64,000 nt of DNA. It comes from Dehalococcoidia bacterium. GTDB lineage: Bacteria; Chloroflexota; Dehalococcoidia; Lucifugimonadales; CAUZJF01. A program made the position numbers and the translations under genes. Shown piece by piece: positions 9,627 through 38,220 of the stretch (position 1 is its first letter; every line of letters starts with the position of its first letter). Under the pieces are notes generated by a model that saw nothing but the letters and a program-made list of their open reading frames with translations, did not search any database and was not told where the DNA came from. The stretch covers positions 402,554-466,553 of the forward strand of contig CBDEFX010000002.1 of NCBI GenBank assembly GCA_965237635.1, read 5' to 3'.

Positions 9627-9643
9627 TAAGGTGGACCCCATTA

Positions 9644-10875: not shown

Positions 10876-10919
10876 GTCGGTTAGTTGCCGGTTATTTTAG
10901 GAGCTGGACTCTCTCTTAG

Positions 10920-12818: not shown

Positions 12819-12832
12819 ACTCGCCGTCTGAC
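12819..12832 (-). other. Candidate attR of the 12.8-30.2 kb island
   Basis: Minus strand GTCAGACGGCGAGT matches the att left arm GTCAGACGGGGAGT at 39309 and 42960 at 13/14 positions. Confidence 0.5.
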
Positions 12833-13008: not shown

Positions 13009-13737
13009 TCACAGGGGAAGCGTCCGCCCTGCCTCCCGCAGGTGTCGGCGACGCTGCTGCGCATCCGGCATCGCCTTGGCCACCAGGCCCCAGAAGTCCG
13101 TCGAGTGGTTCTGATGGGTCAGGTGCGCCAACTCGTGGACGACGACGTATTCGATGAGGGCCTGCTCCAGCATCATGGTGCGCCAGTTGAAGCGCAGCGT
13201 GCCGTCGGGCGCGCAGCTGCCCCAGCGTTGGCGCTGGTCGCGGACGAGTATCTGCGACTTCTCTCCGCGACCGAGCCGGGGCCACCAAAGGTCAACAGCG
13301 TTCGGCAGCCGCTCGGCAGCCCGGTCCCGATACCATCCGACGACTGCACGGCGAATCGGCTCGTAGCGTTCGAGGCCGCTCAGGGTCTTCGGTACTGTGA
13401 CTCGGAAGCGCCAGTGGTCGAAGCGTACCATAGGCGAACGTATGTCCGCGGTATCGACGATCATGCGGACGTTGCGCCCCGAGTACGGCAGGGTCTCGCC
13501 GCTGACGAAGCGCTTCGGCGCGGCTTCCAGCATCTCCCCAGACGCATGGCTGAGGATCCAGGGCGCCCGCTTGCGAACGATGGCCCGTAGCTCGCTGTCC
13601 GGCGTCGTCATGGGTGCAGCAACCTGCACACCGCCACCGTCCGTCGTGATCTGGACCGTCTTCTTACGCCGTTCGCTGCGACGCACCTCGTAGTCTATGG
13701 CCGTGTTGCCGAAGCGGATACGGCCCCGTTCGTTCAC
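13009..13737 (-). CDS. M48/YgjP-like (DUF45) metalloprotease associated with type I R-M
   Basis: QRWGSC, LRFNWR, YVVVHELAHL; overlaps the hsdR stop. Confidence 0.88.
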   Translation of the reverse strand: MNERGRIRFGNTAIDYEVRRSERRKKTVQITTDGGGVQVAAPMTTPDSELRAIVRKRAPWILSHASGEMLEAAPKRFVSGETLPYSGRNVRMIVDTADIRSPMVRFDHWRFRVTVPKTLSGLERYEPIRRAVVGWYRDRAAERLPNAVDLWWPRLGRGEKSQILVRDQRQRWGSCAPDGTLRFNWRTMMLEQALIEYVVVHELAHLTHQNHSTDFWGLVAKAMPDAQQRRRHLREAGRTLPL

Positions 13738-16700
13738 TGCCCACTCCTCCGACGGGCCAGCTCGACGATCCGGTTCGTCAACTCCTCCAGCTGCTCTTCG
13801 GTGTAGTCGTCCGTGGGCCTGAGCTCCCGCTTGATGTCGCGGCGCATCTCCCGCAGGACCTCCAGATTCGACTGCCAGTCGACGACGGCGTTGTGGTGGT
13901 TGACCACCGACTCAACACTACGTGCGACGCGCTTGATCCCTTCGTCGAAGTGCGCCCGGTACGGAGTCTGCTCCTCGCCTATGGCCGAGTCGGTAGCTGG
14001 CTCATCTGAGCGGCCGTCGAGCAGTTCATAGATGGCGAAGGACACCGGAGACAGGCCATGTTCTGCGGCAATGTCAGCTTCGCTCTGAGCATGATGCCGT
14101 AGCAGAGCAAGGCGGCGGCATGCTTCCGCCGAGTCTATCAGCCGGTTCCGAAGGTCTTCGATGATGCGTGCAAGCTGCGCCGAGAGTTTCTCGAAGAACA
14201 CAGGGTTGTCGGCCAAGCGGTCATGTATCTGAGCCCGGATCGCGTGCTCCATGATCGAGGCACGGGCCTCGTCGTGCGGCAGTGCGGCGATCTTCTGCTC
14301 GAAGTCCTGGTCGAGTATCGACACCGGCCTCATTAGCTCCCGCACCTGGGCGCTTATGCGCTCGTCCACCAGCCTCTTTACCTTCGCCCCGATCTCTGTC
14401 CAGTCCGCGTCGGCGTCCTCGCGAAGGAACTGAGCCCGGACGTAGGCCCGTATCTCCGTGAGCCGCGCGAGCCGGTCCGTGTAGTCCAGTGCTCGCGGGT
14501 CGGGCAGGAAGCGGTCCATGAGGAGGGAGAACCGGCGGTAGTCCGCGTTGAACCGCTCGAACAGATCGGCCTTGAAGTTGCCCTCGGTCAAGGCGTCGGG
14601 AGCGAAGACGCTGACGCACGCCCAGGTATCCCTCAGGTCGCGGCTCTTGAAGTGGGATTCCGTCTGGACGGCGGCCGCCTCGATGACCGGTGCCGGGTCC
14701 TCGTCCATCTCGCGCATCGTGTCCTGCACGTCAGGCCAGTCGAAGGTCGAGAGCGCATCCTCCAGGTCTCGCGAGACGCCGTGGTAGTCGATGACCAGGC
14801 CATGGGTCTTGTCGGTGGGCACCCCGTCCTGCTCGTGAGAGAAGCGCCGGTTCACCCGGGCGATAGCCTGGAGCAGCCCGTGTTCCCGCAGCGCCCGGTC
14901 TAGGTACAGCGCCTGCTCCACCGGCGCGTCGAAGCCAGTAAGCAGCATGTCGACCACGACGAGCACCTCCGGCTCCCCCTCCGGATCGACGAAGGCGTTG
15001 ACGACCTGCTCCTGGTCGAGCTCGCGGGCCACCTTGAACTCCGGCCCGTCGTTGGGAGCAGCCGTGATGATGGGATAGGCGCGCAGTCCGAAGCTGTTCA
15101 GGCGCTCGGCGTAGCGCAGCGCGGCGGCCCGACTCGGCGCGACGATTTGCGCCTTGAACCCATTGGGCCGCACCTTCCCCTTGAAGTGCTCGGCGATGTC
15201 CAGGGAGATCATCTCGATGCGCCGCTCCGCCTCGGCGACCGTCTCCTTGTTGGCGTAGCGGCGACGAATCTGCGCCTGGACCTCGGGCGGCTCGTCGCCA
15301 AACATAGCCTCGTACAGCCTGTCCAGGGTCTCCGGCCCCTCGACGGCGAGCTCGGGCAGCCGCGCCTCGTACCAGATGGGCACAGTTGCGCCGTCGGCTA
15401 CCGACTGCGGGATGGTGTAGGCGTCGATGAGGGGACCGAAGCGCCCTATGGTGTTGCGCTTGAAGTCCTTTTCTATCGGCGTGCCGGTGAAGCCCACCAT
15501 CACCGCATTGGGCAGGGCCTTGGACATGCGCCCGCCGAGAATGCCGTACTGCGTGCGGTGGGCCTCGTCCACCATGACGATGACGTTCTCCGAGGCGTTG
15601 AGCACGTCAAGCTCGCCTTCGGGGGCCGTCAACGCCTCCGCGAACTTCTGGATGGTCGTCATCACCGTACGGCTGCCGCCTTCCTTTAGGACGCCCTGCA
15701 AGTCGAGAGGGTCGCGTTGATCCGGCCTTTGCATCCGGCGGCGCGCTCGGCGTTCGGGCCGCTCAGGGCGCGACCTGTCCATTCTCTCTGGCGCAGGAAA
15801 GCCGCAGCGCTCGAAGGTGCCGGCGATCTGCCGGTCCAACTGCCTCCGGTCAGTTGCCACCACGATGGTGGGATTGCTCAAGCGAGGCTCGCGGCGTAGC
15901 TTCGTCGCCAGCCACAGCATCGTCAGCGACTTGCCCGATCCCTGCGTGTGCCAGACAACGCCTCCCCGCTCCTCCGGCTTGCGGCCCGATAGGAGGCGGT
16001 CCAGGGCCGCACGGACGGCGCGGTACTGTTGGTAACGGGGCAGCTTCTTCACCAGCCGCCCCCGCTCCGGCTCGTAGACCACGTAGTCGCGGAGAATGTC
16101 CAGCAGGGTCGCCGGGGACAGCAGGCCCACGATGAGCTGCGCCTGTCCCTGCGGCTCGACGCGGAAGCGCTGCTGAACCTCATCCTCGGTGTACGGCAGC
16201 ACCGATTTCCACTCAAAGTAGGCGTTCTCCGGCGCGCCGAGGGTGGCGTAGGCTGAGGCGGCCCCGCAGTGGGCCACGCACAGCAAGTTGTAGTGGAACA
16301 GCTCCGGCGCGCCGCTGCCGTGCCACTCCGGTCCCGCCTCCTGGTAGCGACGAAGCTGGCGTACCGCCTGCGATCTCCATACGTCGAGCAGTGACGGAGA
16401 CTTGGCCTCCATCACCACCAAGGGGACGCCGTTGACGAACAGCACAAGATCGGGAATGACCATGCGCTCGTCGTCGTCAGCGCCGCCTCGCTCGTTGCCT
16501 CGCCGTACGCGGAACTGCGTTGTGACGACGAACTCGTTCAGGCCGCCCTCCGCTTGGTCGAAGTCGAAGAAGCGGACGGTGCGAGAGTCCCTGCCCCTCG
16601 GCCCGTCCACGGTCAGGGGCATCCCGTAGGTCAGGTACTCGTGGACCGACTGGTTGCGGGCCATGCCCGTGGAGTCGACGTGCTCCAGCTCAAAGACGGC

Positions 16701-16910
16701 TCGCTCCGCCTGCTCCTCCGTCATCCATTCGTTAAGCCGCATCAGCGCGGCCCGCAGCCGTCCCTTCAGCAGGACCTCCCGCTCATCGCCGCGCTCCGCC
16801 GCCAGCGCCTCGCGGGGCACGTAGGTCCACCCCAGACGCTCCAGCAGCAGCCGCGCCGGGTCCTCGGCGTGGTTGAACTCGTTGAGTTTGGAGGCGGTAA
16901 CCATTGTCAT
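13734..16910 (-). CDS. hsdR: Type I restriction endonuclease subunit R
   Basis: PDLVLFVNGVPLVVMEAK nuclease motif, HTQGSGKS, VDEAHR, GFTGTP, VVDMLLTGFDAP, QAIARVNR. Confidence 0.95.
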   Translation of the reverse strand: MTMVTASKLNEFNHAEDPARLLLERLGWTYVPREALAAERGDEREVLLKGRLRAALMRLNEWMTEEQAERAVFELEHVDSTGMARNQSVHEYLTYGMPLTVDGPRGRDSRTVRFFDFDQAEGGLNEFVVTTQFRVRRGNERGGADDDERMVIPDLVLFVNGVPLVVMEAKSPSLLDVWRSQAVRQLRRYQEAGPEWHGSGAPELFHYNLLCVAHCGAASAYATLGAPENAYFEWKSVLPYTEDEVQQRFRVEPQGQAQLIVGLLSPATLLDILRDYVVYEPERGRLVKKLPRYQQYRAVRAALDRLLSGRKPEERGGVVWHTQGSGKSLTMLWLATKLRREPRLSNPTIVVATDRRQLDRQIAGTFERCGFPAPERMDRSRPERPERRARRRMQRPDQRDPLDLQGVLKEGGSRTVMTTIQKFAEALTAPEGELDVLNASENVIVMVDEAHRTQYGILGGRMSKALPNAVMVGFTGTPIEKDFKRNTIGRFGPLIDAYTIPQSVADGATVPIWYEARLPELAVEGPETLDRLYEAMFGDEPPEVQAQIRRRYANKETVAEAERRIEMISLDIAEHFKGKVRPNGFKAQIVAPSRAAALRYAERLNSFGLRAYPIITAAPNDGPEFKVARELDQEQVVNAFVDPEGEPEVLVVVDMLLTGFDAPVEQALYLDRALREHGLLQAIARVNRRFSHEQDGVPTDKTHGLVIDYHGVSRDLEDALSTFDWPDVQDTMREMDEDPAPVIEAAAVQTESHFKSRDLRDTWACVSVFAPDALTEGNFKADLFERFNADYRRFSLLMDRFLPDPRALDYTDRLARLTEIRAYVRAQFLREDADADWTEIGAKVKRLVDERISAQVRELMRPVSILDQDFEQKIAALPHDEARASIMEHAIRAQIHDRLADNPVFFEKLSAQLARIIEDLRNRLIDSAEACRRLALLRHHAQSEADIAAEHGLSPVSFAIYELLDGRSDEPATDSAIGEEQTPYRAHFDEGIKRVARSVESVVNHHNAVVDWQSNLEVLREMRRDIKRELRPTDDYTEEQLEELTNRIVELARRRSGQ

Positions 16911-17815
16911 TACGAGAAGATCGCGATCGGGATTACCTGGATTGCTGGCCCCTGAATCTCAGTGGATGAATCTCCGGAATAACCCGGCTCGTTAGCAAAT
17001 TGGCTCATTGCTTCTTGAATGGTCGGCAAAAAGGTCCTAAATTGTCCAAGTGGGGTCTTCCTCAGAAGGTCGATGTTCTCGTCGTTGGGTTCTGGGATGA
17101 CGCGGCTAGCCTTACCGAAAACGCGGAATGTTCCGTCGATGACGTCATTCATCGTAGGATCATTGAAGTATTGCTGCTCCGTGGTGATGATCACATTAAT
17201 GTCACCGATTCTGGAGACGAGGTCCCGGGATTCACCACTTGTTAATGCTTTCACCAATGAGTTGACCTGCTTAAGCACAGTAGAGTTCGCGCTCTTGCCT
17301 TGCTTGCGCTGACGGGGACCCTTCGGTGCTGTCGGTTCTTCGAAGGCGCTCATTAGTGGAACAAGTTCAGCGAACGCCGATAATTGAACCAGAAATTGAT
17401 TCCGCCGAAGAGTCGCTTCAAATTCCACAAAGTCGCTGGGGCGAACCCCGCCAAGGCCGGATGGGTCTAATAGATCGGTCACCAGGCCACGATTACGCAA
17501 ATCTCTTCGCAGGCGAGCGAACAATGATGCCGGTGTATGGATAATTTCTTCCGTAGTGCTCTCACTCTGCGCCTGCCCCGTTTGTCGAGACCCACGTCCA
17601 CCGAATTTCATTCCAAACAAAGTGAGGTTGGCTCCAACCTGTGCTTCCCCAGAAACTTCTGTCGATTTCTCTCCAGAGGAAGTAGTCTGCACGGTTGAGA
17701 AGCGTGAGAATCCGTCTTCCAGTGTTGCAAGGATATCGAACGTCACTTGTTGATTCAGGTATAATGCAATAGGCAGGTCAGTGACAACGAGTTGGGATTC
17801 CTCTTTATTGGCCAT
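16910..17815 (-). CDS. Hypothetical protein (DUF6414-like) inside the hsd operon
   Basis: 301 aa; IALYLNQQVTFDILATLEDG start and IPIAIF end resemble DUF6414 as I recall it. Visibly more AT-rich than its neighbours. Confidence 0.65.
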   Translation of the reverse strand: MANKEESQLVVTDLPIALYLNQQVTFDILATLEDGFSRFSTVQTTSSGEKSTEVSGEAQVGANLTLFGMKFGGRGSRQTGQAQSESTTEEIIHTPASLFARLRRDLRNRGLVTDLLDPSGLGGVRPSDFVEFEATLRRNQFLVQLSAFAELVPLMSAFEEPTAPKGPRQRKQGKSANSTVLKQVNSLVKALTSGESRDLVSRIGDINVIITTEQQYFNDPTMNDVIDGTFRVFGKASRVIPEPNDENIDLLRKTPLGQFRTFLPTIQEAMSQFANEPGYSGDSSTEIQGPAIQVIPIAIFS

Positions 17816-19088
17816 GAATTCCCTTCCCCACTTCTACCCGCACACGCCCCGACAGCAGCGCGGCTGCGGTGGATGCCTTCAGTGACCGCAGTCGATTCCA
17901 CTCAGTCCTGTTCTCTTCGATAGCCTTGTGAAGAGACTTTCCAACATCGGCAATCGTGTTGCGCTCCGACGACGACGGGAAAGCAACCCGCGCATGGCTC
18001 ACGTTAATCAGACTCAGACCAGGCCTGGTCTGACCGTAAGCCATCCCTCTGAACTGGTTCTGACCAGCCAAGCCTCTTAAGAACTCGCAGGCAAAGTCAC
18101 TTAGCCCTGGGTCGTTGAGCCTCACTAGCGCCACATGCTGACTCACGTAAGCTTGGCATAGCGTGTCTCCTGCCACCGTTACCTTACCGGGTTCGCCGGT
18201 GATTGAAACAAGAAGGTCGCCCCTGTGGATGCGAGTTCGTGCGGCTTCGGCATCTACGGGGGGCTGAACAAAGATTGCGTCAGACCTATCAATCGTGCCA
18301 CCCGAAATGTTCTGACTCCGAACAAAGAACGCACCGTTGGGCCTGAAGTACTGGGACCATGCCCTTGAACCACTCGTGATAGTCTGTGCCACATCCTCCA
18401 GCCGCACCACCTCCCACCCCGCTGGTATCGTCCCAATGCCCGGCACATCCTTCCATTGGGTGTGCCAACCGGGGACGCCGCGGGTGAGCAGTTGGTGCAG
18501 CAGGGCGTTGCGCAGACATTCGGTGGCCGTGATGACCGCCTCCACACCCTCGATGGTCTCGTCGATGGAGTCCAGCACGGCGGCGATGGCCTGCTGCTCC
18601 GGCAGGGGCGGGAGGAGAAGTGGGAAAGCAAGGTAGCCAGCGTAGTCTAGGTTGCGGATGCCCGTAGTTTGATGCTGTAATCGTGTAGTTACCCCTTGCA
18701 AGTAGCGGTGCCAGAGTGCCCGGGCTACGTAGAAGGGGCTACAACGTGAAGCGTCCACCCGGAGGTGTTGACAGAAATTATTGCAGTACACGGGGCCGAA
18801 CCCATCTATTATCGCAACACGCCCGACGGGCGTTCCAGGACCGCCGCCACTCCGTTCTAGAATGAGGTCCCCATCGCGCATCAGTCGGCGTTCTCGGTCA
18901 CGATCTGAAAGTCGTCGCCATGCGGCAGCTTCCGGATTAACTCGACCATCCCTCGTAAGATCAGTGGCTCTGAGCACTCGTACGCCAGGATCGTCAGGTG
19001 ATGGCTCGTCCCCCCAAGCACCAGGTTGATTAAGGACCAAGATGTCCCCTAAGCGCACCACCTGCCATCCATCCGGCACTTGCATCAA
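17805..19088 (-). CDS. hsdS: Type I restriction specificity subunit S
   Basis: VPDGWQVVRLGD, two TRDs, central LPPLPEQQAIAAVLDSID...IPAGWEVVRLEDV, C-terminal LKAS...LLSG. Confidence 0.93.
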   Translation of the reverse strand: MMQVPDGWQVVRLGDILVLNQPGAWGDEPSPDDPGVRVLRATDLTRDGRVNPEAAAWRRLSDRDRERRLMRDGDLILERSGGGPGTPVGRVAIIDGFGPVYCNNFCQHLRVDASRCSPFYVARALWHRYLQGVTTRLQHQTTGIRNLDYAGYLAFPLLLPPLPEQQAIAAVLDSIDETIEGVEAVITATECLRNALLHQLLTRGVPGWHTQWKDVPGIGTIPAGWEVVRLEDVAQTITSGSRAWSQYFRPNGAFFVRSQNISGGTIDRSDAIFVQPPVDAEAARTRIHRGDLLVSITGEPGKVTVAGDTLCQAYVSQHVALVRLNDPGLSDFACEFLRGLAGQNQFRGMAYGQTRPGLSLINVSHARVAFPSSSERNTIADVGKSLHKAIEENRTEWNRLRSLKASTAAALLSGRVRVEVGKGIHGQ

Positions 19089-19444
19089 CTGCTCCGCTGG
19101 TCTCCACTGTCGGTGCCCCGCAGCGCATCAAGTGTCACCCCTCGGCCTGCCTGTTTCGCTTCGAGCCACCGCTGGAGAGACTTCTGACTCTCACTGGATG
19201 GCCTGCCCGCAAGCAACCCCTCCACGCTGACGTCCTCGTCTAGGTCGGGCCAGTGGATGCCCTGGCCTCCGCCTATGAGCCGCCAGTTGGCCTTCTCTTC
19301 CTCCGTGGCATTCACCAGCCTGGGGTACCAGGCCAACGGGACCGAGATGGTCCGGCCATCGGAAAGCTCGGCGGTCAACGTGTCCTCGGTGACAGTCACG
19401 TCTTCCGCATCCGGGACCCTTACCTCAACCATCGAAATATTCAT
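19085..19444 (-). CDS. DUF2442 protein (putative TA partner)
   Basis: LSDGRTISVPLAWYPRL...GQGIHWPDLDEDVSVEGLL. Confidence 0.88.
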   Translation of the reverse strand: MNISMVEVRVPDAEDVTVTEDTLTAELSDGRTISVPLAWYPRLVNATEEEKANWRLIGGGQGIHWPDLDEDVSVEGLLAGRPSSESQKSLQRWLEAKQAGRGVTLDALRGTDSGDQRSS

Positions 19445-19661
19445 GCCACGCCTCCACGAACAACGTTTGGTTCTCCCCAATTATCCTCGCAATTCGGCCT
19501 ATCTCAGAGCGCCTCAGTCCGCCGCTCCTCTGAAGCCTCACCGGGTCCAGCCAGAACTTGGCGACCCGGTCGTCACGCTCAACATGCACATGTAGCGGCT
19601 CCTCCCGGTCACTTGCATAGAAGAAGAAGCGATACGGCCCCTCTCTCAGTATCGTCGGCAT
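19425..19661 (-). CDS. DUF4160 protein (putative TA partner)
   Basis: MPTILREGPYRFFFYASDREEPLHVHVER...AKFWL...AWHEYF. Confidence 0.88.
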   Translation of the reverse strand: MPTILREGPYRFFFYASDREEPLHVHVERDDRVAKFWLDPVRLQRSGGLRRSEIGRIARIIGENQTLFVEAWHEYFDG

Positions 19662-19676
19662 CGCTCACCTGCGACC

Positions 19677-21206
19677 CTATCGGGCATATCCCAGCTCCGC
19701 GAGCAGTTCGTCCATCTTTGCCACCGCCTCGTCGCGCCGCCGCTCAGCATCCCGCAGCTGCGCCAAGGCGTCCTCGATGCTCATCACTTCCACGGGCTCG
19801 GTAGTGTCCACGTACCGGCTGATGTTCAGATTGAAGTCGTTGGCCCGCATCTCCTCCAGGTCTGCCACGTGGGCGAAGCGTTCCACGTCCTCGAAGGCGG
19901 TATACGCCTCGACGATCCTGGCGATGTGTTCCTTGTCGATATAGTTCCGCGCTTTGCCTTGCCGGAAGCTGCCCTCCTGCGCCGCGTCTACGAACAGCAC
20001 CTTGCCACGCCGCTCGGCGGGTTTGGCTTTGTTCAGTACGCAGATAGCAACGGGGATGCTGGCCCCGGAGAAGAGGTTGGGCGCCAGTCCGATGACCGCC
20101 TCGAACAGGTCGGCCTCCACGATGCCCTGGCGTATCTTCCCCTCCGCCCCGCCCCGGAACAGGATGCCGTGGGGCATCACGATTCCCACCATGCCCTGAG
20201 AGTTGATCACGCCGAGCATGTGCAGTAGGAAGGCGAGGTCACCCTTCGTCTTGGGCGGGATGGCGCCGTAGCGGTCGAAGCGGTGGTGCGGGTCGTTTGG
20301 CGCGAATTCGTGTCCCCAGTTCTTCAAGCTGAAGGGCGGATTGGCGATCAGCCGGTCGTAGGAGAGGAGGCGTCCCGTCCCGTCCACTAGGCCCGGCTCC
20401 GCGATGACGTCGCCGGGTTCCAGACGAGCGGCCCGCAGGCCGTGAAGCAGCAGGTTTAGCTTGCCGATGGCCAGGGTTCCCAGGTTGCGCTCTTGGCCAT
20501 GCAGCGCCAGGTCACGGAGGTCTCCGCCGTGTTCTTGCACGTACTGAGCAGTGTAGATGAGCATCCCGCCGGAGCCAGCGGTGGGGTCGCAGATACGCAT
20601 CCCCTCGCGTGGTTGAAGCAGCTCGATAATGAGGCGCACCACGGGGCGAGGCGTGTAGAACTCGCCGCCCTTCTTCCCAGCGTCGTCGGCGAACCTGTTT
20701 ATCAGGTACTCGTAGGCGTCGCCCAGCACGTTGCCGCCGCCTGCCGCGTCTTCCCGCAAGTTCTCGTCGCGCAGGTCCAGGCCGTCGAAGTGGTTGAGCA
20801 GGCCGCGGATGATGCGTTCACGGTTGGCCGGGCTGCCCAGCTTGGACTCGTCGTTCCAGTTGGTACCCGCCAGCACGCCGTCCAGCCTGGGAGTGTTAGC
20901 GTCCTCGATGGCGTGGCTGACGACGTTCAGGGTTTCGCCCAAGTTCATCGAGGCGGCAGCAATGGCCTCCCAGCGGGCCGATGCTGGGACGAAGAACTCG
21001 TGCTCGTCCCGGTCGTTGAGCGCCACGTCGCGGGCAACGCCCAGCGCGACGGCGTTCTCCACCTCCTCATCGAACCGGTCGGACAGCCGCTTAAGGAAGA
21101 GAATGGAGAAGATGTAGTTCTTGTAGTCGGCGGCGTCGATCTGTCCGCGCAGGATGTCGGCGGCCTGCCACAACTTCGACTCAAGCTCCTGCCTGGTCAA
21201 CGTCAT
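19677..21206 (-). CDS. hsdM: Type I restriction methyltransferase subunit M
   Basis: LWQAADILRG, GKKGGEFYTP, DPTAGSGG, ANPPF, MPHGILFRG. Confidence 0.95.
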   Translation of the reverse strand: MTLTRQELESKLWQAADILRGQIDAADYKNYIFSILFLKRLSDRFDEEVENAVALGVARDVALNDRDEHEFFVPASARWEAIAAASMNLGETLNVVSHAIEDANTPRLDGVLAGTNWNDESKLGSPANRERIIRGLLNHFDGLDLRDENLREDAAGGGNVLGDAYEYLINRFADDAGKKGGEFYTPRPVVRLIIELLQPREGMRICDPTAGSGGMLIYTAQYVQEHGGDLRDLALHGQERNLGTLAIGKLNLLLHGLRAARLEPGDVIAEPGLVDGTGRLLSYDRLIANPPFSLKNWGHEFAPNDPHHRFDRYGAIPPKTKGDLAFLLHMLGVINSQGMVGIVMPHGILFRGGAEGKIRQGIVEADLFEAVIGLAPNLFSGASIPVAICVLNKAKPAERRGKVLFVDAAQEGSFRQGKARNYIDKEHIARIVEAYTAFEDVERFAHVADLEEMRANDFNLNISRYVDTTEPVEVMSIEDALAQLRDAERRRDEAVAKMDELLAELGYAR

Positions 21207-21523: not shown

Positions 21524-21643
21524 CCTTCACGACGGCTGCGACTTCGGCGTGGTGCGCCAGGGTCTCGCCCTGCGGCGCAAGTCCTACATTGAATATACAA
21601 GCTCCAGTTCTCTCGATAGACTAGGTAGTGTTGACATTTCACG

Positions 21644-22450
21644 TTATTCCGCGCTCTCTATGATGCGCCGCTCTTCTGCTGCGACCGCTTTCCTGTCAAA
21701 CTCGATTCCAATCAGATCGCTCTTCAGATACGCCGCATCCCCTTGCCTACGTTCACACCAGAGCAGCAACGCTCCCTCCTCGGGCTTCATCCCCGGCACC
21801 TCGACTTTCCACGGTACAGCCCTCACGCCGACCCATGGCCTTTGCGTCACAACCATCGGTGGTAAGGCATAGGAATGCTCGCTCGGGATCAAGGAGAATC
21901 TGTTCTCCGGCGTCAGACGGATCAACCAGCGATTGAAAAGTGTCCCGATGTGGAAGTCATTGATCTCGTGAAACACCTTGAGCGAATCTGTAAGTTGATC
22001 CCCGCCCTGTTCCTCCCAGAGCGCTTGATTAGGTGTCTCAGGATCCCAGAACATGCCACGTGGCAACCAGACGTTGAGCTGCATGTATTTCACAGTTCGG
22101 TCGCCTCGATTCTGGACCTTCCAATATAGGTGGATCGGCCAAGTCAGGCTTGCTGAGATATGGGGCAGAACGTCCGTTCCTTCGGAGTTCGTGGTGGCTT
22201 GAACATGGATAAAAGATTCTACTCTGTTGGCGACATGAGCCTCGGTGGCCTCCAACTCCGCCTCCGATCCAATCACTCGGGCTTGATTTCGTCTGATGAT
22301 GTTGCCGACGGTGCCCTTATCTAGGCTGTAGTCGAACTCGGCTTCCACCTTCTGAGCGATCACTCGATAGCTCAGATCCGGGGCATTTCGTTTCGTATCG
22401 ATTATGAATTCCCTGATATTGCTCGGGGTTTTTTTTCCTTGCTGACCCAA
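21644..22450 (-). CDS. Hypothetical protein with a possible N-terminal HTH
   Basis: 268 aa; LSYRVIAQKVEAEFDYSLDKGTVGNIIRR is HTH-like. Confidence 0.6.
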   Translation of the reverse strand: MGQQGKKTPSNIREFIIDTKRNAPDLSYRVIAQKVEAEFDYSLDKGTVGNIIRRNQARVIGSEAELEATEAHVANRVESFIHVQATTNSEGTDVLPHISASLTWPIHLYWKVQNRGDRTVKYMQLNVWLPRGMFWDPETPNQALWEEQGGDQLTDSLKVFHEINDFHIGTLFNRWLIRLTPENRFSLIPSEHSYALPPMVVTQRPWVGVRAVPWKVEVPGMKPEEGALLLWCERRQGDAAYLKSDLIGIEFDRKAVAAEERRIIESAE

Positions 22451-22546
22451 CGCGCTCTGCCTTCTTGTGATTCACCGGGGAAACTCGGTGAAAGTCGATG
22501 AATGTCTGCAACGTAAGCGCAAGCCGCCCGAAATGGGGAATCTTAA

Positions 22547-24265
22547 CCCGAATCCACCGAAGGAGGGCGTCGGGTTAGCGTCCTGAGGCGGCAAGAAGGC
22601 GCTCCTGTGCTTCTGGGATAATGGTTTTGTAGCAAAAAAACGACCCCGGAAAAGGAGCACCCAGTAGATGCTGCCACGCAACCACCCCGACCGGATCCAA
22701 ATCACCTTCGACGACCGCCGCTTGGTGGCCAATGCCGGGCTGCTCCTTCCGGCCACCCTGGCGCGGCACCTCGGCCTGCCCGAACTCGTCCGGCAGCGCC
22801 TCGACCTGGGCGATGCCCCGGGGCGGGCGAACACGAGCGACAAGATGATGACGCTGGTGGCGTCTGCGCTGGCTGGGGGCGACTGCATTGACGACGCCGA
22901 TGTGTTGCGCACCGGGGGGACGGCCTGCACCCTGGGCGGCACGGTCAAGGCGCCATCCACCCTGGGCACCTTCCTGCGCAGCTTCCGGTGGGGCCACGTC
23001 CGTCAACTCGACCGGGTGAGCCGCGAGTTGCTGGCCCGGGCTTGGCAGGCCGGGGCGGGACCCGGCGACGGGCCCCTGACCATTGACCTGGACTCCACCA
23101 TCTGCGAGACCTACGGACTGGCCAAGGAGGGCGCCCGCCACCACGGCTATACCGGCAAGCGGGGCTACCACCCGCTGCTGGCCATCGCCGCCGGCACCGG
23201 AGACGTGCTGATGTCCCGGCTGCGCGAGGGCCGGGCCAACACCGCCCGCGGCGCCGCCCACTTCCTGCGGGAGACGGTGGGACGGGTGCGCTACGCCGGG
23301 GCCAACGGACGACTCACGCTACGGGCCGACAGCGGGTTCTACACTCATGGCGTGGTATCCGTCTGCCGCAAGATGGATGTCCGCTTCTCCATCACCATCC
23401 GCCAGCACAAAAGCCTGCACAATCTCATCGAGGCGATACCCGAAGATGCCTGGACGCCGATTCCTTACTGGATGGACGGTGCCGCCGATGTGGCCGAGAC
23501 CACCTGCACCCCCTTCCAGGCCGAGGCGGACGCCGCGCCGGTACGGCTCATCGTCCGGCGGGTGAAGCCGACGCCCGGTTCCCAACTGGCCCTCTTCGCC
23601 AAATACAGCTATCATGGCTTCATCACCGACCGAGACGGGGAGTTGCTCGAACTGGAGGCTGACCATCGCCGCCACGCCGAGATCGAGAATACCATACGCG
23701 ACCTCAAGTACGGCGTCGGGCTGAACCATCTCCCCTCGGGCCGCTTCGCCGCCAACGGCGCCTGGCTGGCCGTCCAGACGATGGCCCACAACCTGGCCCG
23801 CTGGACGGCGCGGATCGGTCTGGGAGAGCGGATAGCCACCACCAAAACCCTCCGGCGGCGGTTCTTCTCCCTGGCCGGACGGCTCACCCGCTCGGCACGC
23901 CGGTTGACCCTGCATCTTCCGGATCGCTGGCCTTGGGCTGAGAAGTTCAGCCGCGCCTTGGCCCGGCTGCGAGCCATTCCACTCCCGGCCTGACGGCACC
24001 GTCGGCGACCGACCCACCCACCGGACAACCGAAGATCCCCGCAGACTCGTGCCAGCCCGGTCCGAGAGAGTTCCCTGCTGCGTATTCTCTCGCCATCCCG
24101 CGCATCGCAGCTCCCGCAGACGGCCATAGGGGCCCCTGTGCGGCGATGAAGACCGTCCGCCGACCTCCCTACCCCAAATGGAACCCAGGCTATTTCCCCT
24201 GTAGCTCCCTCACCCCCCTTCCGCTTTCCTCACGCCGTCCATCGGTGTCCTTCGGTGGATTCGGG
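22547..24265 (+). mobile_element. IS1380-family element, copy 2
   Basis: Same IRs as copy 1; TSD CTTAA at 22542-22546 and 24266-24270. Confidence 0.93.
22668..23993 (+). CDS. IS1380-family transposase
   Basis: 441 aa, same motifs as 11176-12501. Confidence 0.93.
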   Translation: MLPRNHPDRIQITFDDRRLVANAGLLLPATLARHLGLPELVRQRLDLGDAPGRANTSDKMMTLVASALAGGDCIDDADVLRTGGTACTLGGTVKAPSTLGTFLRSFRWGHVRQLDRVSRELLARAWQAGAGPGDGPLTIDLDSTICETYGLAKEGARHHGYTGKRGYHPLLAIAAGTGDVLMSRLREGRANTARGAAHFLRETVGRVRYAGANGRLTLRADSGFYTHGVVSVCRKMDVRFSITIRQHKSLHNLIEAIPEDAWTPIPYWMDGAADVAETTCTPFQAEADAAPVRLIVRRVKPTPGSQLALFAKYSYHGFITDRDGELLELEADHRRHAEIENTIRDLKYGVGLNHLPSGRFAANGAWLAVQTMAHNLARWTARIGLGERIATTKTLRRRFFSLAGRLTRSARRLTLHLPDRWPWAEKFSRALARLRAIPLPA

Positions 24266-24941: not shown

Positions 24942-25676
24942 ATGAAGAGGACAGTCTTGATTCCTGAGTCGATGGGCGTCGCGAGTGAGGGAGCCAGCAT
25001 GGCCTCGTTCCACGAGGCAGGGCCCGGTGCGAGTCCGAGGGCGACGCTCCAAGCGATTCGGGTGGGTCCCATAGCTCAGTCGATCGCCAAGCCGCTGATC
25101 GTAAATGGGCACTACCTGCACAGCTATCCGGGTGGCACGAAGCTTGCCTTCGGTGCGTTTCTCGGGAGTGCCCTCCTGGGTGTGCTGACGCTTGGCGTAG
25201 GTCCGAAGCTAGGCTATCAACTCGTCGCAGGAGCCAAGCCGGAAGACTGCGTGACACTTACTCGTCTCTGGCTCTCCGACCGGTTGCCGCGGAACAGCGA
25301 GTCGCGGGTGCTGGGGATCGTGCTTCGTGCGTTGAAGCGGCACACGTCTCTTAAGTTTGTCCTTGCCTACGCCGACCCATCCGTAGGGCACGTGGGAACC
25401 ATCTATCAGGCCAGCGGCTGGTCTTATTCGGGAATTTCGGCAGCCATGCCTATGTACGACCTGGGCGACGGCGTTCCTCGCCACAGTCGAAGCCTCGCCT
25501 ACATGTTCGGGACCCATTCTCAGCGACACTTCGCGACCAACGGAGTCTCGCTGAGACCCCTGCCGCAGCCGGGAAAGCATCGCTACGTCTATTTCCTAGA
25601 TCGTGAGTGCACTCGTCGATTGAATGCGCGAGTTCTGCCATATCCGAAGAAGGAGGACGTTATTGAGGGTCGTTGA
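24942..25676 (+). CDS. mom: Mom-family (GNAT-like) DNA adenine modification protein
   Basis: HYLHS, LTRLWLSDRLPRNSESR, YADPSVGHVGTIYQASGW, KHRYVYFL, recognised as Mom-like motifs; sits next to a ParB-like gene. Confidence 0.8.
   Translation: MKRTVLIPESMGVASEGASMASFHEAGPGASPRATLQAIRVGPIAQSIAKPLIVNGHYLHSYPGGTKLAFGAFLGSALLGVLTLGVGPKLGYQLVAGAKPEDCVTLTRLWLSDRLPRNSESRVLGIVLRALKRHTSLKFVLAYADPSVGHVGTIYQASGWSYSGISAAMPMYDLGDGVPRHSRSLAYMFGTHSQRHFATNGVSLRPLPQPGKHRYVYFLDRECTRRLNARVLPYPKKEDVIEGR
24976..25051 (+). ncRNA. tRNA-Gly(UCC)-like element, non-canonical, overlapping the mom 5' end
   Basis: 76 nt. Acceptor GCGTCGC/GCGACGC + U73 + CCA; D stem GTG/CAT; anticodon stem GCCTC/GAGGC with loop GT-TCC-AC; T stem CCCGG/CCG(A)GG with loop TGCGAGT. 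Confidence 0.8.
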
Positions 25677-26295
25677 TCTACCAGTTGGGAGCCTCAGGGA
25701 GGCGGCCTGGAACCCGAACGCGATGGAACCACCCATGGTCGCAAAACTCCGCATGAGCATCGCCCGGTTCGGCTTAGTCGGGAACCTGGTGGTGCGGCGT
25801 GTGTACGTTGACCGATACGAGGTCATCGGCGGCAACCAACGTCTCCAGGTGTTGAAAGAGATGGGCGTGAAGCAGGTCCCATGCGTGGTCCTTGATCTGG
25901 ACGATGCCGAAGCTCGCCTGCTAGCTCAGGCCCTGAACCACGTAGAGGGCGTCGACAACGCGGGGCTCAAGGCCGAGCTGGTGAAAGAGGTGCTCAAGTC
26001 CATCCCCCGGTCCGAAGTGTTGGCAGTCCTGCCCGAGACCGAGGATGGACTCAGTGTCCTGGAGTCTCTCGGTGAAGCGGACCTCGCGGAGCACCTGCGG
26101 GCATGGGAGCAGGCCCAGGCCGCACGGCTTCGCCATTTCACGGCGCAGCTGTCGGCGAGCCAGCTCGAGGTAGTGGAGGAGGCGATGGAGCGGGCCGCGT
26201 CGGGAACCGGCGCCGATCCCTCGAACCCAAACCAGCGTGGCAACGCCCTCTACCACCTGTGCCAGGAATACCTGGAGAGGAGTCCAACGCCATGA
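25663..26295 (+). CDS. ParB/Srx N-terminal domain protein
   Basis: WNPNAM...LRMSIARFGLVGNLVVR...YEVIGGNQRL. TTG start behind GGAGG, overlapping the mom end. Confidence 0.85.
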   Translation: MRVVDLPVGSLREAAWNPNAMEPPMVAKLRMSIARFGLVGNLVVRRVYVDRYEVIGGNQRLQVLKEMGVKQVPCVVLDLDDAEARLLAQALNHVEGVDNAGLKAELVKEVLKSIPRSEVLAVLPETEDGLSVLESLGEADLAEHLRAWEQAQAARLRHFTAQLSASQLEVVEEAMERAASGTGADPSNPNQRGNALYHLCQEYLERSPTP

Positions 26296-26519
26296 AAAAG
26301 CTGCCATGCCCGGTCTGCTCGGAGACCCTGTCCGTACGCCTAGCCACCGGGCGCAAGTCTGGCAAGCCCTTCGTGATGCTGGTCTGTCCGATCGATGGCA
26401 GACACATCCGCGCCTTCGTCTCCGACCGGGACTTTGTATCCAGCGTCATCGAGAAGGCGGGTATACGCGAACCAGTGTCTAAGCCAGTCCCAACGGGTAG
26501 GACGGGGACGGAAGGGTAG
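26292..26519 (+). CDS. Small Zn-ribbon protein
   Basis: CPVC...CPIDGRH; ATGA overlap with the ParB-like gene. Confidence 0.7.
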   Translation: MKKLPCPVCSETLSVRLATGRKSGKPFVMLVCPIDGRHIRAFVSDRDFVSSVIEKAGIREPVSKPVPTGRTGTEG

Positions 26520-26530
26520 GGACTCCCGCG

Positions 26531-27499
26531 GTGGAAGCATATAAACAACTAAAACTCAGACAGAGGGAAGCACGCATCGCGGCGACCTTGCCCGCCACCA
26601 TTGGAGAAGATGCCATCACTGCCACCGCGCCCATAAGGGAGATAACGACGGGGCTGTCTACCAGGCTGGGCCTGGTGCAGACGGCACTGTCGATGGTGCT
26701 CGAGGGGCGGACCAGGGCCACGGTGACAGAGGTGACCGATCGGGCCGCTGACGACTTCGAGGTATTCATCTTGCCGTCAGTGGGAGGTCAGATCTTCAGT
26801 GATTTGGGAGTCCGGCGCGTCAGTGTCCATGGCCAGCGCCGGCTGATCCTGGAAGCTGAGTCTCTGCAGGCTGTCCACGATGACCTGGTAGGGCAGATGG
26901 AGAGGCTGAAACCTCAGGTTGAGGCAGCGGCGGAAAAGTTCGAGAGGTCGACCGAGACGGTGCAGGTGTTGGAAGGGCGGATGAGCAGGATCTACCAGCG
27001 TGCTAGCCACGAGAAGGAATTGAGGGCGTTCATCATCAAGTACGAGCAAGAGGGCAGGGGGGCCAACGAATGGCAGTCGCGGTACGACGGGCTCAAGGCC
27101 CGCATCCAGCGAGGAGAGGAGTTGAAGGCGGCCTGCCAGGAGCTGGAAGCAAAGATAGCGGAGCTGGGCTCCCCTGAGGAGATGCAGAAGGTATTGGAGG
27201 AGAAGCTTCGGGACCATGAGAGCCGTATGGAGGAGCTAGCCAAACGCGATGAAGCCCTGGAGAAATCGGGACGCGACGTGGACCGCAAGGAAGCGGCTCT
27301 TGAGAAGAAGCTAGAGGAGCTGGATCAGAGGGAGCGGGCTCTTTTGGGCAGGTTCTTCAAGTACAACGTTCGCGAAGGCGTGGTCGAGACAGGCGAGGTC
27401 AAGAAGGAACTGAAGGAAAGGAAGAAGGAACTGGCCCGTCTGGACCGTGAGCTGGGGAAGAAGCGTGGCATGCTGGCCCGGCTGCGAGGGAAGGACTGA
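26531..27499 (+). CDS. Hypothetical protein with a long C-terminal coiled coil
   Basis: 322 aa; E/K/L/R-rich heptads over the last ~200 aa; stop overlaps the resolvase start. Confidence 0.7.
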   Translation: MEAYKQLKLRQREARIAATLPATIGEDAITATAPIREITTGLSTRLGLVQTALSMVLEGRTRATVTEVTDRAADDFEVFILPSVGGQIFSDLGVRRVSVHGQRRLILEAESLQAVHDDLVGQMERLKPQVEAAAEKFERSTETVQVLEGRMSRIYQRASHEKELRAFIIKYEQEGRGANEWQSRYDGLKARIQRGEELKAACQELEAKIAELGSPEEMQKVLEEKLRDHESRMEELAKRDEALEKSGRDVDRKEAALEKKLEELDQRERALLGRFFKYNVREGVVETGEVKKELKERKKELARLDRELGKKRGMLARLRGKD

Positions 27500-28110
27500 T
27501 GCGCGTCGGTCTCTACGCCAGAGTCTCCACCTTGGACAAGGACCAGGACCCCGAGACGCAGCTCGTGGCACTGCGAGAGTTCGTTCGGGCCCAGGGTTGG
27601 GAGATTTTCCGCGAGTACGTGGACCACGCCCCTGCGCGAGACCTGACCCATCGGACGGCCTGGCGCGAGCTACTGGACGACGCGGCCAGGAAGCGATTCA
27701 AGACGGTGGTGGTCTTCAGGCTGGACCGGGCCTTTCGGTCGGTCAAGGACATGCACGACACGCTGGCTACGTGGGAGCTGTTGGGGATCGCTTTCAAGAG
27801 CGTGCGAGAGCAGTTCGACACAGGGACGGCTGTGGGAAGACTGCTGCTGAACCTTCTGGCGGCGGTGGCAGAGTTCGAGTTGGAGCTGATCCGCGAGCGT
27901 GTGAAGGCGGGGATGGACAGGGCTCGCCGACAGGGCAAGCGGATAGGGCGTCCCAGGGTAACGGACCGGCGAGGCTTCGATCGTCGTTTTGGAGCTATTT
28001 TGGAGCGCCTAAGCTCGGGAGAACTATCGAGACGTAAGGCGGCGTTTGAACTGGGTATCGGCTATGCAACGCTCAAACGCCTGATCGACGCACAAGAGTC
28101 GGCTGGCTAG
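27499..28110 (+). CDS. Small serine recombinase (resolvase/invertase) with C-terminal HTH
   Basis: GLYARVST, QDPETQ, VVVFRLDRAFRS, FELELIRERVKAGMDRAR..GKRIGRP. Confidence 0.93.
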   Translation: MRVGLYARVSTLDKDQDPETQLVALREFVRAQGWEIFREYVDHAPARDLTHRTAWRELLDDAARKRFKTVVVFRLDRAFRSVKDMHDTLATWELLGIAFKSVREQFDTGTAVGRLLLNLLAAVAEFELELIRERVKAGMDRARRQGKRIGRPRVTDRRGFDRRFGAILERLSSGELSRRKAAFELGIGYATLKRLIDAQESAG

Positions 28111-28161
28111 GTGGCTGCCTTGGAAACGCCTGTACATCCACAAAACGTGCCTCAAAACGGG

Positions 28162-28188
28162 TTGACGTGTATACGTTCCCGTATACAC
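28162..28188 (+). promoter_or_regulatory. Promoter with overlapping palindromic operator upstream of the large recombinase
   Basis: TTGACG-16 bp-TACACT; perfect IR GTGTATACG-ttcc-CGTATACAC (28167-28188); conserved at 58124-58150. Confidence 0.6.
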
Positions 28189-28319
28189 TGTACCGCCACA
28201 AATCCAGGTGCTGTCAAATACGGTGAGACAGACCTCATCATGATCGATAACTTCCTTGAGACACTTGCCAATGCGGCCATGGCCGTTGCAGCCCGCAGGC
28301 CGAACGACGAGGACGAAGA

Positions 28320-29936
28320 ATGAGCGACGCGAACTCCAAGAGAGCTGTGGCCTACCTCAGGGTATCGTCTATCTCACAGGTGGACGGGCACTCTCTGAAC
28401 GCCCAGGAGCGGCTCTTCAATCAGTTGTGTGAGAGCCGAGGGTGGGCGGCCGTCAGGGTCTATCGGGAAGAGGGCCAGTCGGCCCACTCGGAGTCGGTGA
28501 AGAAGCGCCCTATCTTCCGCCAACTGATGGAGGACGCCAGGAGGGATCAATTCGATATCGTCGTAGTCCATACCCTTGACCGATGGTCTCGCAACCTCAG
28601 GGTCACCCTGGAGTCGCTGGCCAACCTGGGCATGCACAACGTCGCTCTCGTCTCCATCACCGAGAACATCGACTACTCGACCCCTGAGGGGATGTTGACG
28701 ACTCAACTTCTGGGGTCCTTCGCCCAGTTCTTCTCCAACATGCTTGGCACTCACGTAAGCAAGGGTCTGGATGAGAGGGCCAATGAGGGCAGACACACCG
28801 GCGGCATCCCGTTCGGATACGAATCCTGCTGGATGAGCCAGGACGGAGAGCGCAGGCGCAGATGCCCAAAAGAGCATTCCGGGGGCGTTCATCTTATTGC
28901 GTCCGAGGTTGCCGCGGTCCGGGAGATGTTCAAACGGTACTCAACGGGATCGACCACACTAAGCCAGCTCGCCGCGTGGCTGAACGCGAGCGGCTTACGG
29001 ACTCGCAACACCAAGCAGCTGGCAGGCGCTGATGGCAAGCTCTCGCCCGGTCCGAAGCTATTTACCACTGCCTCAGTGAGGGGCATCCTCCATAACGCTT
29101 TCTACTCGGGTCTTGTCAGGCACAGGAAGCAACTCCGACCGGGAGCCCACGAGCCAGTCGTCGGCCAGGAGCTCTTCGATCTGGTCCAGGACAAGATGCG
29201 GCACAACAGCGGCAGATCAACGACCCTGAGCCCTCACCCTCACCCTGAGCGTGACTATCTTCTGAAAGGGATCATCCGTTGCGCCTACTGCAAGATGCCG
29301 ATGTGGGCACAGACCTATAAAAGCGGAAGAAGGTACTACCGTGAGCACAGGGAGTCTCGCAGTAACACCCAATGCCCAGCTCACGGCGGCTCGATACCGT
29401 GCCGCCTGGCGGATGAGCAGGTCGGAAGGATCGTCGAGGCCATCGAGCTGGGACCTGCATGGCAAGAGCAGCTCCTCTCGATAATCAGCGCCAGGGACGA
29501 GGTCGAAGTAGTCCAAGCCAAGCGGCGAAAGGTCCAGGAGAGGCTTCGGAGACTCGCCAAGACCTATGTCGATGGAGTTTATGATGACCAGGAGTATAAG
29601 CGGCAGAAGCGGAACCTGGAGATGGAGCTCGAGTCCCTCGTTGTGCCAAAGGCTGCCGCAGCCGCAGAGGCGGGGAAGCTGATAGAGAGGCTGCCTGAGC
29701 TATGGGCTGGAGCCAACATGGAAGAGCGTCGGAAGCTGTTGGTGGCCATGCTGGACGCCGTTTACGTTGACACGAAAGACGCCCGTTCGGTCGTCGCCAT
29801 CAAGCCCAAAGCTCCGTTCAGGCCAGTCTTCCATCTGGCAACCACCCGTGCCGGCTCCGGCGTATCTCTTACGCCTGGTTCTGACCGGAAACAACAGGAA
29901 CGTACCGAGCGCGTGTTCGAGGCCGCCTTCTCATAG
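28320..29936 (+). CDS. Large serine recombinase (integrase) with Zn-ribbon domain, copy 1
   Basis: AYLRVSS, VVHTLDRWSRN, GGIPFGY, ILHNAFYSG, HEPVV, LLKGIIRCAYC, coiled coil. Confidence 0.93.
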   Translation: MSDANSKRAVAYLRVSSISQVDGHSLNAQERLFNQLCESRGWAAVRVYREEGQSAHSESVKKRPIFRQLMEDARRDQFDIVVVHTLDRWSRNLRVTLESLANLGMHNVALVSITENIDYSTPEGMLTTQLLGSFAQFFSNMLGTHVSKGLDERANEGRHTGGIPFGYESCWMSQDGERRRRCPKEHSGGVHLIASEVAAVREMFKRYSTGSTTLSQLAAWLNASGLRTRNTKQLAGADGKLSPGPKLFTTASVRGILHNAFYSGLVRHRKQLRPGAHEPVVGQELFDLVQDKMRHNSGRSTTLSPHPHPERDYLLKGIIRCAYCKMPMWAQTYKSGRRYYREHRESRSNTQCPAHGGSIPCRLADEQVGRIVEAIELGPAWQEQLLSIISARDEVEVVQAKRRKVQERLRRLAKTYVDGVYDDQEYKRQKRNLEMELESLVVPKAAAAAEAGKLIERLPELWAGANMEERRKLLVAMLDAVYVDTKDARSVVAIKPKAPFRPVFHLATTRAGSGVSLTPGSDRKQQERTERVFEAAFS

Positions 29937-30153
29937 CTGCGGCTCGGTCCTGTCCGTTCCACCCGCCATAGCGAAGCACCGCCCCAGCCTGCTGTTCCGC
30001 ACCTGCTATAGTACCTATGCTCCAAAAGGGGGTCGGCTTGCGTCGTAGCTACCACGAGGCGTAATGTCAGCCGTACCAAAAGGACTTGGTTTTGCTACAC
30101 TCGGCGCCGTCGACGTGAGTCGCTTACTAGAGGCTGACTGATCCCCGTGTTCG

Positions 30154-30183
30154 TGGTGGAGACGGGGGAGGGCCTAACTCCAC
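30154..30183 (-). other. attL-like site with a tmRNA-3'-end-like arm
   Basis: Minus strand GTGGAGTT-AGGCCCTCCCCCGTCTCCACCA; the same arm recurs at 39323, 42975 and 56143. Confidence 0.7.

Positions 30184-36814: not shown

Positions 36815-38220
<1,406 letters not shown>

Follow-up and report, generated by a model that had tools for sequence, protein, structure and literature searches.

How does a homologue of the adenine-modifying enzyme Mom of phage Mu come to head a string of genes that runs into two serine recombinases, and what might these genes do for one another? The question arises from a 64,000-nucleotide stretch (henceforth the window; positions 402554-466553 of contig CBDEFX010000002.1, here C2) of the genome of a Dehalococcoidia bacterium, in which four tightly packed genes for a Mom-family protein (mom), a ParB-like protein (parB), a zinc-ribbon protein (zn) and a coiled-coil protein (cc) precede the recombinase genes dsiA and dsiB. 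We think it fairly probable that the four genes constitute the accessory half, without the recombinases, of the integration module of a serine-recombinase island that targets the gene for transfer-messenger RNA (tmRNA), of the type called ssrA-specific genomic island (ssrA-GI), and that they act by the tRNA-dependent DNA modification proposed below.

The gene string and its kinship with ssrA-specific islands

The string and the attachment (att) repeat beyond it comprise the following features, in window coordinates:

24942..25676, + strand: Mom-family GNAT protein, homologue of the adenine-modifying enzyme of Mu (PF25680, E 3e-54)
24976..25051, + strand: tRNA-Gly(UCC)-like cloverleaf in the first ~37 mom codons (ARAGORN at a relaxed threshold, covariation)
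25663..26295, + strand (open reading frame open from 25624): stand-alone ParB/Srx N-domain protein, ~210 aa (PF02195 ParB_N, E 3.1e-11)
26292..26519, + strand: CCCH zinc-ribbon protein, 75 aa, outside described families (24 homologues, AlphaFold2)
26531..27499, + strand: winged-helix and long coiled-coil protein, 322 aa, optional in the module (AlphaFold2 model)
27499..28110, + strand: DsiA-like small serine recombinase, 203 aa (PF00239, E 9.5e-37; PHROG 'DNA invertase')
28111..28323, + strand: conserved 70-aa frame (orf70), candidate integrase cofactor (tblastn, ATGA coupling to the next gene)
28320..29936, + strand: DsiB-like large serine recombinase (LSR), 538 aa (Resolvase, Recombinase and Zn_ribbon_recom domains)
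30147..30181, no strand assigned: tmRNA 3'-end-like att repeat, reverse complement, containing the ssrA direct-repeat primer at 30154

The seven open reading frames (ORFs) from mom to the LSR gene lie head to tail on the + strand, and all are intact in the window copy. The initial annotation had described four tightly coupled genes leading into two recombinases, which is borne out by overlaps of 1-14 nt and gaps of 0-11 nt: mom and parB overlap by 14 nt and parB and zn by an ATGA (4 nt), zn and cc are 11 nt apart, the cc stop codon overlaps the ATG of the small recombinase at 27499 by 1 nt, dsiA and orf70 abut with a gap of 0 nt, and orf70 and the LSR gene again overlap by an ATGA (4 nt). The element reaches beyond the coordinates 24942-27499 given by that annotation, and the tRNA-like element, mom, parB, zn, cc, dsiA, orf70 and dsiB are probably a single operon. 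One contig from an RNA library, 100% identical to the window, bridges the cc/dsiA junction (27404-27584), a weak hint of co-transcription. The mom, parB and zn genes are uncovered by RNA-library contigs, which is no evidence of silence, and a scan for promoters and terminators returned counts no higher than in shuffled sequence. Two further ORFs were rejected as genes, namely the Arg/Gly-rich orf136 (24535-24945), which is frameshifted between two 99%-identical copies, and an ORF at 24146-24547 that overlaps the end of an insertion sequence (IS).

Elements of this kind have been known since 2011, when McMurdie et al. (BMC Genomics 12:287, PMC3146451) described a six-gene "integration module" in 16 Dehalococcoides ssrA-GIs. 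It encodes DsiB (540 aa), DsiA (200 aa), a "RecF homologue" (150 aa), ParBc (210 aa), a Mom homologue (270 aa) and a primase-like protein (700 aa). Two further marks are a tRNA-Gly-like locus of 76 bp, which falls within the initial 150 bp of mom, and an attL beside dsiB that is formed by the tmRNA 3' end. Islands with the same recombinase/parB/dnaG layout are still drawn in a Dehalogenimonas paper of 2026. The locus in the window resembles this module in the order mom - parB - (small gene) - dsiA - dsiB, in the gene sizes, in the tRNA-Gly-like element at the 5' end of mom and in the tmRNA 3'-end repeat beside dsiB. The four genes are assigned to such a module because gene order and sizes match those of 2011, because the ssrA-repeat primer of McMurdie et al. 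(TGGTGGAGACGGGGGAGGG) is found at window 30154, 214 nt past the LSR stop codon, and because the LSR gene of relatives abuts or overlaps the tmRNA gene.

The match is not complete. The ~700-aa primase-like gene that lies upstream of mom in the ssrA-GI module is lacking in this genome, whereas the zinc-ribbon gene, universal in the loci collected here, is not among the six genes listed by McMurdie et al. The 'RecF' position, occupied by a protein of ~150 aa in that list, holds a 322-aa winged-helix coiled-coil protein devoid of an ATPase domain. In canonical ssrA-GIs dsiB overlaps the repeat, while here the LSR stop codon precedes it by 214 nt. Finally, ssrA-GIs lie within ~100 kb downstream of the tmRNA gene, but here the copies are ~290 kb or more away and dispersed over both contigs.

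A search for Mom in other genomes recovered Dehalococcoidia loci in which the genes stand in the same order (50-60% identity), and a profile search added 33 loci. The succession Mom-ParB-Zn occurs in 25 of the 25 Chloroflexota-type loci with enough downstream sequence; the genes are thus found together at 25 loci other than the one in the window. At least 18 loci continue into an LSR, and in 8 a tmRNA gene on the opposite strand follows directly after it. The LSR in the window is 50-65% identical to LSRs that abut tmRNA genes in relatives. DsiA is 46-84% identical in relatives and missing from 7 loci, and is therefore not essential to the family. The orf70 frame, which matches no family in Pfam, NCBIfam or PHROG, is found by tblastn just upstream of the LSR in most loci (35-52% identity), also where DsiA is absent.

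A related arrangement is seen in the staphylococcal cassette chromosome mec (SCCmec), in which two co-transcribed serine recombinases, CcrA and CcrB, likewise move an island into the end of a single-copy, non-tRNA essential gene. CcrB and XisF are the best NCBIfam matches of the LSR, but far below the cut-offs (112 bits for a CcrB/XisF-like family with a cut-off of 900), and DsiA, unlike the Ccr proteins, is a 200-aa recombinase of the resolvase/invertase type that is dispensable in the 7 loci. To our knowledge there are no Mom or ParB genes in SCC elements.

The initial annotation had also noted that the island carries no capsid, relaxase or replicase. None was detected among the island genes scanned with Pfam, but the statement on the replicase is true of this genome only: relatives (L003, L024, L029, L032 and L033) have a primase-like gene of ~700-800 aa upstream of mom, of which no homologue was found in the window or in the whole genome. 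How the element transfers is still unexplained, as that annotation had said, and is so in the literature too.

Mom and the tRNA-like element within its gene

The Mom protein scores 184 bits against PF25680 (gathering cut-off 27) and matches PDB entry 8bv8, 'methylcarbamoylase Mom', with an E-value of 1e-20 (2e-31 with a profile). Mu Mom moves glycine from Gly-tRNAGly onto adenine N6 in double-stranded DNA (dsDNA), which is followed by rearrangement of the product to N6-carbamoylmethyl-deoxyadenosine; R111, S124 and R151 are essential to the enzyme (Silva et al. 2026, PMC13219725). Of the seven residues assigned to the active site of Mu Mom, the protein in the window keeps six, and the equivalents of H58, Y59, R111, S124, D149 and Y159 are invariant in 28 homologues, R111 and S124 corresponding to R108 and S121 here; W48 and W181 of Mu Mom are not conserved in the homologues. 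Because Mu Mom uses Gly-tRNAGly to modify adenine and the active-site residues are retained, the operon most likely hypermodifies DNA, as far as sequence can tell.

The com-mom region of Mu (PMC13219725; PDB 8bv8) resembles the present locus in more than its Mom homologue (~31% identity over 200 aa), as it too encodes a small zinc protein alongside mom and has a small serine recombinase (Gin) nearby. The Mu region compared differs in lacking ParB and a tRNA gene of its own, and Mu is a transposable phage, not an integrative island.

A role of the operon in modifying or protecting the element, as suggested in the initial annotation, is plausible in view of the retained catalytic residues and of the links of ParB to DNA methyltransferases and to Mom in phages, but it is not new: McMurdie et al. 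had already suggested for the accessory genes a part in regulating recombination or in modifying the element after excision, so that the idea, like the kind of element, was already in print. Neither their paper nor that of Silva et al. mentions the other's system.

The tRNA-like element inside mom has the acceptor pairs G1:C72, C2:G71 and G3:C70, the discriminator U73, an encoded CCA and the anticodon UCC; its T-loop begins UGC, and an A is bulged in the T stem. It was seen only through the relaxed ARAGORN threshold combined with comparative covariation. When 25 sites (the window and 24 homologous ones) are aligned, 89% of the cells are paired versus 37-52% in slid controls, 12 pairs of the cloverleaf change on both sides, and 0 of 500 shuffles match the observed values. 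The acceptor-stem, discriminator and anticodon bases agree with what we take to be the glycine identity set of bacteria. The simplest reading is that the module carries an enzyme together with its own glycyl donor, and the use of Gly-tRNAGly by Mu Mom makes sense of a 'pseudo-tRNA' within mom.

A precedent for such a donor is provided by the non-proteogenic tRNAGly of Staphylococcus (Rietmeyer et al. 2021, PMC7826273), where extra tRNAGly paralogues feed the GNAT-fold aminoacyl-transferases FemXAB outside translation. These tRNAs likewise show TGC for TTC in the T loop, and by analogy the element in mom may bind EF-Tu poorly. The staphylococcal system differs in that its substrates are peptidoglycan precursors, not DNA, and the element here differs from the staphylococcal tRNAGly in its bulged T stem and in its location inside a coding region.

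Ordinary host tRNAGly genes with the anticodons GCC, CCC and UCC are present elsewhere in the genome. Two more odd tRNA-Gly(UCC) genes lie 1.8 kb apart (G000:C2:1691654-1691729 and 1693430-1693505); they start C1...G72 and differ both from the canonical host set and from the element embedded in mom. Mom homologues of Actinomycetota (~41% identity; L004:2723-2796, L042) show a tRNA-Val (TAC or CAC) where those of Chloroflexota have the tRNA-Gly-like element, and the loci L004 and L042 have neither ParB nor zinc ribbon. This tRNA-Val could be a different aminoacyl donor, or merely mark a tRNA-Val integration site.

Partner proteins and competing explanations

The ParB-like protein probably starts at TTG 25663, behind an AAGGAGG, which fits the MxIxELP start of its homologues. 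Only its N-terminal domain matches ParB; the protein aligns to the CTP (cytidine triphosphate)-binding domain of Noc and Spo0J, and both the G and the R of the GxxR box found in nucleoside triphosphate (NTP)-binding ParB domains are retained. In PHROG and PADLOC it matches best the ParB domains of ParB-methyltransferase fusions. The zinc-ribbon gene stands immediately 3' of parB in all 24 homologues, in which C6, C9 and C32 never vary and H38 hardly does. Microbacterium phages, too, have ParB next to Mom. In phage Appa a ParB-like gp46, a Mom-like gp47 and a tRNA-Gly(ccc), gp48, stand side by side, that is, the same three parts as here. The Appa cluster differs in the order of its genes (ParB, then Mom), in its tRNA, which is a separate gene on the opposite strand with a regular T arm in the ARAGORN drawing, and in having neither zinc ribbon nor serine recombinase, and its proteins are only ~30% (Mom) and ~26% (ParB) identical to those in the window. 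It provides independent support for an association of ParB, Mom and tRNA-Gly. Given the synteny, the gene overlaps and the ParB-Mom pairs of phages, ParB and the zinc ribbon are probably accessory factors of the modification step. A complex prediction for Mom, ParB and Zn (with Zn as partner) returned a score of 0.00, which weighs neither for nor against binding.

These observations can be assembled into a mechanism. The RNA of the tRNA-Gly-like element would be charged by the glycyl-tRNA synthetase (GlyRS) of the host, as its identity elements suggest. Mom would then place the glycyl group on the N6 of adenine in dsDNA to yield N6-carbamoylmethyl-adenine, a reaction shown for Mu Mom and predicted here from homology and the retained catalytic residues. 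The ParB/Srx protein and the zinc ribbon, which are always present, may load, target or regulate Mom on DNA, as strict synteny, gene overlap and the phage pairs would imply, with the winged-helix coiled-coil protein as an optional DNA-binding accessory. The modification might shield island or host DNA from restriction, for instance when the island enters a new cell, or protect it against the type I restriction-modification (R-M) system of the island itself, and DsiB, with or without DsiA, would integrate and excise the island at tmRNA-like att sites. A bolder version can be conceived, in which Mom, ParB, the zinc ribbon and a dedicated non-proteogenic tRNAGly within mom form a self-supplied adenine-hypermodification machine and an obligate partner of island mobility, with ParB as a loader that depends on NTP and confines modification to the island or its att sites; judged from sequence, we hold this to be a tentative possibility.

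Several observations weigh against the proposed mechanism. ARAGORN at its default threshold and the Rfam tRNA model find no tRNA in the window, and with its non-canonical elbow the element may not be a normal substrate of GlyRS. As it overlaps the mom frame, excising the RNA would sever the mRNA. The seventh active-site residue, R151 of Mu Mom, is replaced by Ser147 in the window and varies among S, A, T, N, G and E in the clade. A ParB or tRNA neighbour is lacking for many phage Mom genes, four further loci among them, so that Mom does not generally require ParB. Lastly, a 99%-identical paralogous copy of the locus (L011, at C2:1.23 Mb) has lost parB and zn, the equivalent of window 25616-24 to 26524 being missing, and its mom, though still open, is C-terminally truncated.

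An unlikely alternative is that Mom is an unrelated anti-restriction enzyme working on its own, and that the role of ParB, the zinc ribbon and the coiled-coil protein lies in the maintenance or segregation of the island once it is excised as a circle, or in nicking it for transfer. McMurdie et al. (PMC3146451) suggested nicking or segregation roles for ParB, whose N-domain resembles those of the partition proteins Noc and Spo0J. The coiled-coil protein lends itself to the same interpretation: its AlphaFold2 model shows a winged-helix-like domain at residues 33-106 (pLDDT, the predicted local distance difference test, ~90) followed by helices at 109-211 and 215-319, its fold matches are all winged-helix DNA binders, though all weak (E 0.04-0.2), they include the archaeal centromere binder AspA, and its coiled-coil region is weakly like SMC and JetC. 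Weak sigma-factor matches (residues 73-160) overlap the modelled winged-helix domain. Against segregation, however, neither a ParA-type ATPase, the partner that defines ParABS partition systems together with a parS centromere, nor a replicon was found among the genes scanned in the islands of this genome (no ParA-like domain with Pfam). No parS-like repeat array came to light either, though no search aimed at one was made, and in the lytic Microbacterium phages ParB adjoins Mom outside integrative islands. Moreover, the coiled-coil gene is absent from most loci; homologues were found only in L001 (as a 156-aa ORF), L011, L024, L029 and L032, with fragments in L014/L015. The protein has no ATPase motif or domain, and its matches to SMC, Rad50 and JetC are only of the coiled-coil type, so that the label 'RecF homologue' probably does not suit it.

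That the zinc ribbon, orf70 or both act as a recombination directionality factor, switching DsiB between integration and excision, is quite improbable. Both proteins are small, conserved and encoded in the operon of the LSR, and the zinc ribbon is present wherever the LSR is. AlphaFold2 models it as a three-stranded ribbon with one helix (mean pLDDT 80), and the zinc-ribbon domain of a serine integrase is among its top fold matches (E 0.19, not significant). On the other hand, its gene is ATGA-coupled to parB, not to the LSR gene, orf70 being the gene so coupled, and there is no significant match of sequence or fold: it belongs to no family in Pfam, NCBIfam, PHROGs or PADLOC, where only weak generic zinc-ribbon matches (Pfam, PDB) were obtained, and Foldseek against the PDB returned generic zinc ribbons only, at E >= 0.19. 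The 7 loci in which orf70 and the LSR come straight after the zinc ribbon are compatible with this explanation and with others alike. The guess of the initial annotation that the zinc ribbon is the directionality factor thus finds no support; orf70, through its coupling to the integrase, is no weaker a candidate and the better placed of the two.

The zinc ribbon might also play the part of Mu Com, binding to the leader of mom (the tRNA-like region) and controlling Mom translation or tRNA processing. Com, a 62-aa zinc protein encoded with mom and annotated as a translational regulator, does invite comparison with the 75-aa zinc protein always encoded with mom here. There is, however, no detectable homology (hhalign probability 6.5%, 11 columns), com precedes mom in Mu while zn follows parB here, and the small upstream ORFs of other phage Mom genes have no cysteines; we regard such an analogy as decidedly improbable.

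What is new beyond the 2011 description is that the zinc ribbon is universal, that the "RecF" gene can be read as one for a winged-helix coiled-coil protein, that DsiA is dispensable, and that the embedded tRNA-Gly-like element can be linked to Mom chemistry.

The island in its host genome

Upstream of mom the window holds further features of the element and its surroundings:

12819..12832, no strand assigned: candidate left att half-site ACTCGCCGTCTGAC; 13 of its 14 positions agree with the half of the full tmRNA-like site that the right copy lacks
13009..21206, - strand: probable island cargo, namely type I R-M genes (HsdM, HsdS, HsdR), DUF2442, DUF6414 and a YgjP-like peptidase (Pfam)
21644..22450, - strand: divergent 268-aa ORF (orf268), 95% identical in L011, within the unit shared with the second Mom copy
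22547..24265, + strand: IS with a DDE_Tnp_1_4 transposase between orf268 and mom, with its own 5-bp duplication, CTTAA

In the right att copy the agreement with the full tmRNA-like site ends after AACTCC. The missing half, CCGTCTGAC, is found at 12819-12832, a match for which we estimate a chance expectation of ~0.008 in 24 kb on both strands. The type I R-M region lies between this candidate left half-site and the module, and it is plausible that the island spans 12819-30183 with the type I R-M operon as cargo. The tmRNA gene itself is at C2:751003-751355, ~290 kb from the window, and ~19 copies of the tmRNA repeat are dispersed over both contigs, four of them in the window (30154 on the + strand; 39327, 42978 and 56146 on the - strand).

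Parts of the module recur in the genome. Homology between the window copy and L011 begins at window 21652, thus taking in orf268, whose N-terminal segment looks helix-turn-helix-like by eye. A third, diverged copy (L012, ~60% amino acid identity) keeps Mom-ParB-Zn. The dsiA-orf70-LSR part is multi-copy, with six full-length LSR copies at >=98% identity and one fragment, and other IS elements sever most copies from the Mom side; read depth in one DNA run, ~11 over mom-cc versus 31-48 over most of the LSR part, fits these copy numbers. One such copy, 98% identical, lies in the window itself on the - strand (56135-59888). Its orf70 carries an IS256-type insertion (58203-59563) at the 5' end, and upstream of this copy lies a gene for a DUF499 protein (61382-63991), not Mom-ParB-Zn. 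Comparison of 42969-43142 with 30008-30183 further reveals a solo copy of the last ~80 bp of the island right end, a 95-bp spacer and the att repeat, devoid of a recombinase, which is probably a scar of excision or deletion.

The host genome (4.4 Mb) is IS-rich. The IS at 22547-24265 ends 670 bp upstream of mom and is absent from L011; its own duplication and this absence indicate that it is a late secondary insertion outside the module. The same IS, with the DDE_Tnp_1_4 transposase and the terminal repeat CCCGAATCCACCGAAG, is present in three copies (10920-12622, 22547-24265 and 31027-32744), whose 5-bp target duplications, CTTAA, CTTAC and CTTAG, suggest a preference for CTTAN targets. A composite transposon bounded by the inverted copies at 22547 and 31027 was considered and rejected, as each IS has its own duplication and the first is absent from the paralogue. 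Elsewhere in the window a Kelch-repeat gene (32750-35609) is split by an IS3-type element (33404-34701) that is 99.8% identical to a copy at 9624-10921, and a sensor-like gene contains a group II intron domain match (37231-37332, - strand; Rfam, 62.6 bits). Sequence ~99% identical to window 24276-30183 turns up in many metagenome runs (11 studies, with sponge metagenomes and metatranscriptomes among them), and the host is probably a sponge-associated Chloroflexota bacterium.

That the module is a decaying relic whose four genes no longer function in this genome is very improbable: the region is crowded with IS elements, one of them close upstream of mom, 5 of the 7 recombinase copies (the six full-length ones and the fragment) have lost the Mom side, and the second Mom copy lacks parB and zn, but the window copy retains intact all seven overlapping ORFs from mom to the LSR as well as the catalytic residues, the 98-99% identity among copies speaks for recent spread, and ~99% identical sequence is held in many metagenome runs.

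The accessory genes of the module of 2011 were never explained, and the Mu Mom finding makes the module a testable system. If the self-supplied machine considered above were real, it would represent a new coupling of DNA modification to site-specific recombination and the first cellular (non-phage) tRNA-dependent DNA modification. The ssrA islands spread reductive-dehalogenase genes in organisms of bioremediation, the island in the window would carry a type I R-M system, and how such islands evade restriction bears on their movement between cells.

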